Shown here one piece after another: positions 49,472-51,125 of a stretch of DNA of 64,000 bases. The position numbers and the translations under genes are program-made. The stretch spans positions 4,043 through 68,042 of the forward strand of contig JAKQOW010000018.1 in the NCBI GenBank assembly GCA_029565065.1, written 5' to 3'. Positions within the stretch are counted from its first letter, which is position 1. Each line of letters begins with the position of its first letter. A model generated the notes under the pieces. The model saw only the letters and a list, made by a program, of their open reading frames with translations, did no database searches and had not been told where the DNA came from. Source of the stretch: Acidobacteriota bacterium. Its GTDB lineage: Bacteria > Acidobacteriota > JAAYUB01.

Positions 49472-50458
49472 GTGCCCGACCTTCAGCCTCTCATGCTCAA
49501 AACCCGTGACCAGGCTCTGGTGTTTGCCAGCCTGCTGCTGGAGCGCGACGAGACCCCCGGTCTGCTGGCGTTCCTGCCGCCCGAGCGCAGGGAGGGACTC
49601 CGGGCCGAGCTGGCCCGGCTGCTTGAAATGCCCGCTAAAAAGCGGATCACCCTGGCGCTGGACCGGCTGAAGCTCCTGATGGATCCCACATATCACGAGA
49701 CCCTCGACGAAATCCACCCGGCCTGGCTGGCCCGCGTGCTCGAGCATGAGCCGGCCTGCCTGGCGGGATTGGTGCTGCACGCGCTCCCCCCGCACCACGC
49801 CCAGCTCGTTTTGAACGAGATGAAACCAAGCCCGGCGAAACGACTGACCGCCGAAATGAGGAACGCTCACCCCTCCCCCCGCCTGGCGGAGTTGTTTCAA
49901 ACCCTGCTGGCCAGGCGCTTCCGCCTGCCTAACCGCATGTCGGGCATCGGCGCCGACCATTTCGAAATCATCGTGTTCCTCAACTGCGACGAGCTGGCCA
50001 TCGTGCTGGAAGAAATCGGCACCTCCGAATTGGCCATGGCCTGCCAGCGGCTGCCCGACGCCGACGCCGACGTCATTTGCAAAAAGCTGCCCGAGAAGAT
50101 GCGCGACAAGGTCCGGATCAAGCTGGCCCAGTACCAGGACACGGTCGAGGAACGCGTCATCCAGGCCCGGCAGTCCTTTCTCCATCTGCAGGACGAGCTG
50201 TACCGGAAAGGGCAGCTCATCGAATTTACCGGCCTGCATCTGCTGGCCCGCGCCATGGTGGGCAGCGACGCCGACCGGGTCGCCTTCCTCGCCTACAAGC
50301 TGCCCCCGGCCGCAAGCGACGTGCTGCTGCGGCTGGTGCAGCGGCTGAGCGCTCAGTTCGAGCCCTCCCAGCGTCAGGCCGTCCGTCTCGAGATCCTCCA
50401 GAAAATCACCTATCTGGCGGAGATCGACCGCATCCGATCCATGTGGAAATACTATTGA
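49472..50458 (+). CDS. FliG-family protein (flagellar motor switch FliG-like; 328 aa)
   Basis: Middle-domain motif LEHEPACLAGLVLHALPP (cf. FliG EHPQTIALIL..L.P). Armadillo-like segment HFEIIVFLNCDELAIVLEEIGTSELAMACQRL (cf. FliG MFVFEDI..LDDRSIQ.LLREV...LALALKG). C-terminal DTVEERVIQARQSFLHLQDELYRKGQLI (cf. FliG VEEAQQKIV..ARKLAESGEIV). Confidence 0.55.
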   Translation: MPDLQPLMLKTRDQALVFASLLLERDETPGLLAFLPPERREGLRAELARLLEMPAKKRITLALDRLKLLMDPTYHETLDEIHPAWLARVLEHEPACLAGLVLHALPPHHAQLVLNEMKPSPAKRLTAEMRNAHPSPRLAELFQTLLARRFRLPNRMSGIGADHFEIIVFLNCDELAIVLEEIGTSELAMACQRLPDADADVICKKLPEKMRDKVRIKLAQYQDTVEERVIQARQSFLHLQDELYRKGQLIEFTGLHLLARAMVGSDADRVAFLAYKLPPAASDVLLRLVQRLSAQFEPSQRQAVRLEILQKITYLAEIDRIRSMWKYY

Positions 50459-50471
50459 TGAGGTAGCGGAG

Positions 50472-51125
50472 ATGTCCTCGAAGATCATCAAGGGAACACC
50501 CGGCGACGAATCCGCCTCCGGCATCGACAAGACCGGCCGGCCGGCCGCGTCCGGCGAGGGCGTGGTTCTCAAGAGCGACGTGGTTCAGGCCATGGGATCG
50601 GCTGAGAAAATCATCGCCGAGGCTCGGGACAAAGCCCGCGAGTTGCTGGACCAGGCCAAGGCGGAAGCGGCGGCCATCCGGGCGGAAGCCCAGCGCTCCG
50701 GATACGAGGAGGGCCTGACCGAGCTCAACCGAATCATTCACGAGTCCAAGACACAATATGGTCGGTTGCTGCACGACTCCGAGCCGGAGATGCTGAAGCT
50801 CAGCCTTAAGATCGCCGAGCGGATAATCGGCCACTGCGTCGAGGTGACGCCTCAGGTCATGCTGGAAATCATCCACAAGGCCATCGAGTCGCTGAAATAC
50901 CAGAAAGAGATTCGCATCCGGGTCAATCCCGACGACCTGGGCTTCCTCAAAGAGAACAAGATGCAACTGTACACCATGCTGGGGGAGAGCAAGGAAATCG
51001 AGATCGTCGAGGACGTGCTAGTGGGCCGGGGCGGCTGCATCATCGACACCGAGATCGGCACCATCGATGCTCGTCTGGAAACCCAGCTCCGGGTCATCGA
51101 GAAGCTATTCGCCCGCAAGCAGTGA
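50472..51125 (+). CDS. FliH/SctL(YscL)-family protein (217 aa)
   Basis: N-terminal coiled coil rich in A/E/R (AEARDKARELLDQAKAEAAAIRAEAQRSGYEEG). C-terminal signature IRIRVNPDDLGFL...VGRGGCIIDTEIGTIDARLETQLRVIEKLF matches the FliH/YscL C-terminal domain (GGC.IET..G.IDA.LETQL). Confidence 0.6.
   Translation: MSSKIIKGTPGDESASGIDKTGRPAASGEGVVLKSDVVQAMGSAEKIIAEARDKARELLDQAKAEAAAIRAEAQRSGYEEGLTELNRIIHESKTQYGRLLHDSEPEMLKLSLKIAERIIGHCVEVTPQVMLEIIHKAIESLKYQKEIRIRVNPDDLGFLKENKMQLYTMLGESKEIEIVEDVLVGRGGCIIDTEIGTIDARLETQLRVIEKLFARKQ

Follow-up and report, generated by a model that had tools for sequence, protein, structure and literature searches.

The stretch of DNA considered here (hereafter the window) comprises 64,000 nucleotides of contig JAKQOW010000018.1 (assembly GCA_029565065.1, positions 4,043 to 68,042), with a G+C content of about 64%, from an uncultured member of the Acidobacteriota. 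On its forward strand, it carries two adjacent genes encoding a FliG-like protein of 328 amino acids and a FliH-like protein of 217 amino acids, which the initial annotation had described as an orphan pair without FliF or FliI partners. In flagella, FliG is a rotor/switch protein and FliH is the tether of the export ATPase. Both open reading frames (ORFs) lie where they had been placed, the three peptides quoted are all present in the translations, and the third-position G+C content of the two ORFs is typical of genuine genes. The pair occupies the fifth and sixth positions in a nine-gene operon spanning positions 47112-56020. As reported initially, a sigma factor precedes the pair and forkhead-associated (FHA) proteins follow it; these are a FliA/WhiG-like factor and products with FHA-family Pfam matches. 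The genes are separated by gaps of 7-31 nucleotides, except that the start of the eighth, encoding a 475-residue tetratricopeptide repeat (TPR) protein, overlaps the stop of the seventh by 4 nucleotides. A gap of 120 nucleotides lies upstream from the first gene, which encodes a PP2C-type phosphatase. Consensus scans revealed no convincing promoter within the operon (five sigma-70-like matches versus 2.0 expected, none of them in intergenic gaps) and no convincing terminator (six terminator-like matches versus 7.7 expected). Alignment of the related loci revealed no conserved sigma-28-type motif upstream from the operon, only possible extended -10 elements.

The FliG-like protein matched the Pfam FliG_C model over residues 164-249 (3.2e-10; 40.7 bits, cut-off 23.3) and the MgtE_N model (6e-9), with a weak match to FliG_M (0.006). 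It is too divergent to have given a significant match to a solved FliG chain in a single-sequence search of the PDB (1qc7, E-value 0.65). A profile of 44 family members retrieved only FliG chains from the same database, the best being T. maritima FliG-MC (7.4e-10), in which the M and C stretches were matched separately, and all of the 13 top Foldseek matches were FliG. The family is small: 14 members were recovered by a direct search and 88 by a profile search, and an exhaustive profile search gave 158 cluster representatives at E≤1e-30, rising to 1973 when the threshold was relaxed to E≤1e-3; the NCBI name of the protein, “FliG C-terminal domain-containing protein”, is no more specific. The protein consists of a short N domain, a FliG_M-like domain (residues ~80-150), a domain resembling helices alpha1-6 of FliG_C (~160-250) and about 80 extra helical residues forming an additional C-terminal domain (250-328). 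The sites equivalent to the EHPQ motif, through which flagellar FliG binds FliM, and to the MFxF motif, both described initially, read E93-P94-A95-C96 (E-[S/P]-P-x in the family) and D-H-F-E (D-P-F-E in the family); the two motifs of flagellar FliG are only partly retained.

In flagellar FliG, the mixed charges of the torque helix meet the stator. The conservation of these charges had been proposed as a check, and the charge pattern proved to have been lost: on alignment with T. maritima FliG_C, the equivalents of E. coli R281, D288 and D289 are K209, I216 and K217. Throughout the family, the first and third of these positions are basic and the second is hydrophobic, and K213 is nearly invariant, so a basic stripe (K209, K213 and K217) replaces the mixed charges. 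Furthermore, the M and C domains are separated by only about 10 residues, versus about 50 in T. maritima FliG, and the ARM_C segment is therefore missing. These features bear on the possibility that the pair represents the functional FliG and FliH of a rotating flagellar motor, encoded away from the remaining flagellar genes. This explanation would account for the FliG_C and FliH scores above the Pfam thresholds and for the adjacent FliA-like sigma factor, and some Acidobacteria are flagellated (PMC3459982). It is nevertheless very unlikely, given the family-wide replacement of the torque charges, the missing ARM_C segment and the extra C-terminal domain of 80 residues; moreover, the closest relatives of the protein lie in the SctJ-type loci described below, with no rod, hook, filament or stator genes within 10 kb on either side. 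The 328-residue protein is thus a homologue of FliG, but not a rotor component that generates torque.

The FliH-like protein gave strong matches to the Pfam FliH model (6.1e-25; 88 bits, cut-off 24.1, residues 82-207) and to T3SS_SCTL (6.7e-8; 32.7 bits, cut-off 23.3, residues 33-210), bearing out the FliH signature that had been noted after the coiled coil. The NCBIfam FliH and HrpE/YscL models scored equally (~103 bits), both below their equivalog cut-offs. An N-terminal motif, MxxKIIKG, is followed by the coiled coil and by a C-terminal domain containing GGCIIDTEIGTIDARLETQL; the N-terminal motif (82% identity) and the C-terminal domain (78%) are the best-conserved parts, and relatives encoded next to FliN and ATPase genes in type III secretion system (T3SS) loci have the same conservation profile. 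In known systems, it is through these two ends that FliH/SctL binds FliN/SctQ and the ATPase. In a single-sequence search of the PDB, the best match was to subunit E of a V-type ATPase (4dt0, 5.9e-4), ahead of FliH (5b0o, 5.6e-3), as would be expected of a peripheral-stalk subunit of another rotary ATPase (V/A-type, subunit E-like) with only an incidental FliG-like neighbour. We consider this explanation extremely improbable: the Pfam FliH score is high, the NCBIfam score for V-type subunit E is only 29 bits versus ~103 bits for FliH/YscL, the orthologues in T3SS loci directly precede the T3SS ATPase gene, and the FliG-FliH adjacency is maintained in every locus examined. [quoted passage not shown]

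The other products of the operon are listed in Table 1. The sigma factor had its best NCBIfam match with TIGR02479 (8e-43; 146.7 bits, below the family cut-off of 189.6). The short TPR protein matched LcrH_SycD (2.4e-9), CdsG (1.4e-7) and SctY (1.8e-6) in NCBIfam, always below the cut-offs. The 113-residue protein had no match in Pfam or NCBIfam; its alignment has invariant residues at P38, E41, L43, L94, E97, L98, K102 and Y103.

Table 1. The nine genes of the acidobacterial operon, with positions in the window.
Product	Position	Strand	Evidence
PP2C Ser/Thr phosphatase (Stp1-like), gene 1	47112-47948	+	Pfam PP2C_2 3e-14; NCBIfam Stp1_PP2C 5.5e-64
113-residue protein, disordered N-terminus, helical C-terminal part	47980-48321	+	Family hidden Markov model (HMM)
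134-residue TPR protein, T3SS class II/needle chaperone-like	48331-48735	+	NCBIfam, phmmer
FliA/WhiG-like sigma-70 family factor	48743-49459	+	Pfam Sigma70_r2 and r4; ATG at 48743
FliG/SctK-like adaptor, 328 residues	49472-50458	+	Pfam, family profile, Foldseek
FliH/SctL-like protein, 217 residues	50472-51125	+	Pfam, NCBIfam
774-residue double-FHA membrane protein	51136-53460	+	Pfam Yop-YscD_cpl 1.9e-19, FHA 1.3e-18
475-residue TPR protein, N-terminal signal-type hydrophobic segment, presumed periplasmic	53457-54884	+	Many TPR families
373-residue double-FHA protein, Pro/Ala-rich linker, C-terminal transmembrane anchor	54899-56020	+	Pfam FHA 2.5e-39

All nine genes were found, in the same order, in five other acidobacterial contigs (L001, L002, L003, L005 and L011), and a sixth (L012) ends within gene 7; the PP2C gene is present in all six of these loci. 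The proteins of the window display 97% identity to those of contig JAGOHA010000053 and 88% identity to those of JAXGLX010000002, and identities among the loci reach down to 38-68%. In unsaturated comparisons, the ratio of nonsynonymous to synonymous substitution rates (dN/dS) was 0.06-0.22 over the nine genes (FliG-like gene, 0.06-0.10; FliH-like gene, 0.10-0.22), versus 0.08-0.12 for the flanking panC. These low, panC-like values indicate that the operon genes are functional rather than relics. The pair could otherwise be seen as a functionless, decaying remnant of a lost T3SS or flagellum, because most of the genes of the putative ancestral locus (see below) have gone. We rejected this reading, which retains hardly any probability, on the basis of the dN/dS values; in addition, the ORFs are intact and full-length in every locus, and the nine-gene order persists despite low protein identity (about 40-50%).

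Pfam searches over all credible ORFs of the window identified the other genes as housekeeping genes (groES/EL, bacillithiol synthesis, mreBCD-pbp2-rodA, panBC and nuo), with no FliF or FliI, nothing else of flagellar or T3SS type and no gene for a Ser/Thr kinase. FliF, FliM/FliN and stator genes were absent from both the window and the six related loci, as were sctJ/fliF, sctN/fliI, sctQ/fliN and sctRSTUV from the window and from the 10 kb on either side of these loci. The term “orphan” used in the initial annotation thus holds over the range covered, namely the 64-kb window and 10 kb on either side of each of the six related loci. PADLOC gave no defence-system match apart from generic ones to PP2C and TPR proteins. 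In one relative (L011, 11837-13459), a tenth gene, directly downstream from the operon, encodes a Hanks-type Ser/Thr kinase with several zinc-ribbon (DZR) repeats; no kinase gene occupies this position in the window or in any other acidobacterial locus. On the opposite strand, an ORF convergent to the operon (56027-57529) encodes a 500-residue helix-hairpin-helix protein with an acidic low-complexity stretch. It was rejected as a member of the conserved cluster because it is retained only in the two closest relatives.

Members of the FliG-like family displaying 20-28% identity to the protein of the window all came from a single type of locus, in uncultured bacteria of low G+C content (39-46%) labelled Deltaproteobacteria or Pseudomonadota. 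We compared seven such T3SS loci in full (L008, L009, L010, L013, L014, L015 and L016) and one in part (L007). Gene order was identical in the seven contigs, and the shorter eighth contig had a matching central segment. The locus begins with genes for a small protein of about 95 residues, a protein of about 175-210 residues, a TPR protein and an SctJ-like lipoprotein, followed by one to three small genes. A central part encodes a FliA-like sigma factor, a protein of about 163 residues, the FliG-like protein, FliH, the T3SS ATPase (directly 3' of fliH) and FliJ/YscO, and the final part encodes a FliK-like protein, FliM, a SpoA protein, FliO, P, Q and R, and putative substrates with TPR chaperones. 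The ring protein scored 135 bits as SctJ and 36 bits as FliF. The P, R and SpoA proteins likewise scored better on Sct than on Fli models (SctR, SctT and SctQ above FliP, FliR and FliN), and the ATPase scored about equally on the two. No recognisable sctU or sctV was found within 10 kb on either side of these loci. The locus type is apparently undescribed, with a mixture of flagellar-type (FliG-like, FliM, FliO and FliJ) and injectisome-type genes. It is also widespread: the 120 matches listed in a profile search with its ATPases were all of the low-G+C type, at 77-95% identity, and public data contain at least 120 such ATPase clusters at ≥77% identity.

The resemblance to the acidobacterial operon extends over several genes. 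In phmmer comparisons of the window with these loci, E-values were 1.7e-19 for the 134-residue TPR protein, the counterpart of which is encoded just upstream from sctJ, 7e-49 for the sigma factor, 5e-30 for the FliG-like protein and 5e-31 for the FliH-like protein; the corresponding protein identities were just 20-30%. The family HMM of the 113-residue protein weakly matched the syntenic first small gene in four of the loci (4e-5 to 0.04), and invariant residues are common to the two sides of this match. Judging from sequence and gene order, five of the nine operon genes (those for the 113-residue, TPR, sigma, FliG-like and FliH-like proteins) are collinear homologues of T3SS genes. The two kinds of locus share the FliH motifs and the layout of the FliG-like protein, including its extra C-terminal domain, but the T3SS loci also have SctJ, ATPase, FliJ/SctO, FliK-like, FliM, SpoA, FliO and P/Q/R genes, and usually lack PP2C and FHA genes. 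With homologues in the same order, the acidobacterial operon resembles a locus of this kind that has collapsed: genes for the ring, ATPase, pods and gate would have been lost piecemeal, both between the retained genes and beyond them, and PP2C, FHA and TPR genes would have been gained. The initial annotation had offered two explanations for the setting of the pair. An unusual rearrangement of a fliFGHI neighbourhood is not supported, because the nearest relatives of both proteins belong to SctJ-type T3SS loci rather than to flagellar-motor genes, in a family without torque charges or an ARM_C segment. Recruitment to a non-flagellar role fits better, with the pair embedded in a conserved FHA/PP2C/TPR operon under purifying selection. 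As a whole, the initial interpretation is partly supported; its identification of the two proteins and the absence of FliF and FliI nearby proved correct.

FHA membrane proteins adjoin only two of the eight low-G+C loci. Just upstream from the T3SS genes, L013 (1437-3518) and L014 (2887-4698, an ORF not among the called genes) encode FHA proteins of the YscD_cpl type with PEGA and TPR domains, which may be SctD-like partners of these systems.

In injectisome operons, sctK sits directly upstream from sctL. The FliG-like gene of the acidobacterial operon ends 13 nucleotides before the FliH/SctL homologue, and the same arrangement was found in all related loci. The FliG-like protein has a helical fold of the PscK type, and its values for the link to SctK exceeded those of MgtE (5.6-6.3) and of the helical background. 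It matched none of the Pfam families YscK, OrgA_MxiK and HrpB4 at E≤1, and had no NCBIfam match at all. PscK was published as a protein without structural relatives. SctK has previously been proposed as the counterpart of FliG (PMC4045390), and the FHA2 domain of SctD has been predicted as the binding site of a chlamydial SctK candidate resembling FliG (bioRxiv 10.1101/2025.03.14.643159).

The gene directly downstream from the pair, the start of which was moved from 51067 in the initial annotation to 51136 on alignment of the orthologues, encodes a 774-residue protein in which two degenerate FHA domains and a Pro/Ala linker precede a single transmembrane helix, the periplasmic part being a TPR/helical domain of about 470 residues. 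In all orthologues, the FHA domains have GS/GN and APxQA where phosphothreonine (pThr) binders have GR and SxxH. The protein scored 70 bits on the Yop-YscD_cpl model (cut-off 33.2) and 24.8 bits on the NCBIfam type_III_yscD model (cut-off 86), and its N-terminal part has the arrangement of SctD, with FHA domains of the non-pThr-binding kind preceding a single transmembrane helix. The cytoplasmic FHA domains of SctD have lost the same pThr-binding residues (PMC4045390, PMC9907115), two phospho-independent FHA domains of PrgH bind one OrgA (PMC9907115), and the double-FHA protein CdsD is phosphorylated by PknD (PMC2765968). The 373-residue protein retains GR, SxxH and NG in both FHA domains in nearly all orthologues, that of L005 having SRQQ in the first domain. 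Two threonine motifs were observed in these proteins. Between the FHA domains of the 373-residue protein (residues ~100-112), EKTTD[FY]LQ is invariant, and just after the first FHA domain of the 774-residue protein (residues ~96-108), most orthologues have A/S-T-[RQ]-E-[ML]-L-E. FHA ligands prefer Leu or Met at position +3, and both motifs, which have Leu or Met there, are therefore candidate phosphorylation sites.

With no channel, ring or ATPase gene, the operon has the appearance of what remains of a T3SS, its cytoplasmic platform, put to a different use. We accord about an even chance to the interpretation of this operon as the remnant of a T3SS sorting platform joined to FHA/PP2C signalling and functioning as a stand-alone platform. 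According to this model, the products would form a cytoplasmic platform, anchored in the membrane and organised on the same principle as the sorting platform of injectisomes. The 774-residue protein would dock the FliG/SctK-like adaptor through its two non-canonical FHA domains, by analogy with PrgH and OrgA, and a FliH/SctL-like dimer would attach to the platform, the assembly of which could be made dependent on threonine phosphorylation by the canonical FHA protein, the PP2C phosphatase and a kinase. The output would probably be control of the FliA-like sigma factor, possibly through the TPR and 113-residue proteins, rather than protein export. The extended version of this proposal, in which a non-secreting platform controls the sigma factor and the FliG-like family shows that SctK descends from FliG, is rather less likely than not.

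Several observations weigh against the stand-alone platform. Both ends of the FliH-like protein are conserved even though the operon has no SpoA (FliN/SctQ) or ATPase gene, which suggests that such partners may persist elsewhere in the genome. The periplasmic part of the 774-residue protein matched TPR families only, with none of the ring-building motifs of SctD. FHA proteins lie within 10 kb of just two of the eight low-G+C T3SS loci, and it is conserved adjacency that suggests a regulatory link between the platform and the sigma factor. The first of these points is the strongest argument for the main rival view, in which the operon belongs to a complete T3SS-type machine dispersed around the genome, as in Chlamydia, with the ATPase, SpoA pod, SctJ ring and gate encoded elsewhere, the 774-residue protein serving as the SctD equivalent and the pair performing its usual sorting-platform tasks. 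Such a machine would also account for the retention of the needle chaperone-like TPR protein and its small partner and for the strong purifying selection on all genes; the low-G+C loci similarly lack nearby sctU and sctV, and chlamydial T3SS genes are spread over several loci (PMC3459982). However, no T3SS core gene was found in the window or within 10 kb of the six related loci, and a survey in 2012 detected no non-flagellar T3SS (NF-T3SS) in Acidobacteria (PMC3459982). The gaps relative to the low-G+C loci are piecemeal (the ~175-residue gene; sctJ and its small neighbours; the ~163-residue gene; and everything beyond fliH), and deletion therefore fits better than relocation of a block. We regard a dispersed machine as a doubtful, although serious, alternative.

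The stand-alone platform would differ from known systems in its combination of parts. It shares with flagellar fliFGHI clusters helices alpha1-6 of FliG_C and probably the FliG_M and FliG_N domains, the coiled coil and C-terminal domain of FliH, the fliG-fliH order and a nearby sigma-28-like factor, but lacks FliF, FliI, FliM/N and MotAB. It resembles the SctD-SctK-SctQ-SctL-SctN assembly of injectisomes in having a helical adaptor gene directly upstream from a sctL homologue and a co-encoded membrane protein with non-canonical FHA domains of the phospho-independent type. It differs in that SctQ, SctN, SctJ and the export gate are missing, the adaptor is FliG-like by sequence and belongs to no SctK Pfam family, and the FHA protein has periplasmic TPRs instead of ring-building motifs, with tandem FHA domains as in chlamydial CdsD. 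Chlamydia, a non-motile lineage, retains a few flagellar-type genes (PMC2830194), namely fliF, fliH, fliI, flhA and the sigma-28 gene, and has a double-FHA SctD phosphorylated by a Ser/Thr kinase (PMC2765968); CdsG-like TPR and YscL-like models are among the best NCBIfam matches of the operon. Unlike the acidobacterial set, that of Chlamydia accompanies a complete, working T3SS and includes an ATPase and FliF, but not FliG. The PpkA-PppA-Fha1 module of type VI secretion systems and the mycobacterial FhaA-FhaB-PstP-PknAB module also have a PP2C phosphatase of the Stp1 type, canonical FHA domains and membrane-anchored FHA proteins, together with an adjacent Hanks-type kinase, as in one acidobacterial relative. 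Neither of these FHA/PP2C/Ser/Thr-kinase modules is known to include homologues of FliG or FliH, or a sigma factor of the FliA type. Finally, the “Myxo” NF-T3SS of Myxococcales, considered intermediate between flagella and injectisomes, retains the export apparatus and ATPase but lacks FliG (Abby and Rocha 2012; PMC3459982). Like the acidobacterial operon, it is a reduced T3SS derivative without needle or secretin that is conserved and has been argued to be functional; the acidobacterial operon has a FliG-like protein and no export apparatus.

Several other features of the window were recorded. An ECF-type sigma factor gene (42543-43061, forward strand) is interrupted by an in-frame TGA at 42927-42929. 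At this codon, L001 and L002, the two closest relatives, carry TGG (Trp), and the frame continues into region 4-like sequence; the TGA reflects either a nonsense mutation specific to this strain or an error in sequencing. The interrupted gene is followed by a zf-HC2 anti-sigma factor gene (43064-43810). On the reverse strand, three adjacent genes (4206-7946) encoding a GT4 glycosyltransferase, a PIG-L deacetylase and BshC match the bacillithiol pathway, suggesting that this acidobacterium makes bacillithiol. Also on the reverse strand, beside the mreB operon, G+C content falls to ~0.55-0.56 over genes for a GGDEF diguanylate cyclase and a FecR-domain protein (38078-40825).

We found no description of the operon, or of SctJ-type loci containing FliG, in the literature searched (FliG/FliH-like proteins, FliG, FliH and FHA in Acidobacteria, and injectisome-flagellum intermediates). 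All of the domains are already known; the novelty lies in how they are combined and in the apparent lack of secretion machinery. Should the operon prove to function with no export apparatus, it would constitute a clear case of the reuse of T3SS cytoplasmic parts beyond secretion and motility, and would offer a minimal and tractable setting in which to study the docking of the adaptor and SctL by FHA-ring proteins. Whether or not this is so, the FliG-like family combines similarity to FliG in sequence and, apparently, in all three domains with the position of sctK in SctJ-type loci and a match to the PscK fold. This makes the long-standing suggestion that SctK is the counterpart of FliG directly testable, and adds an intermediate form to the history leading from the flagellum to the injectisome.

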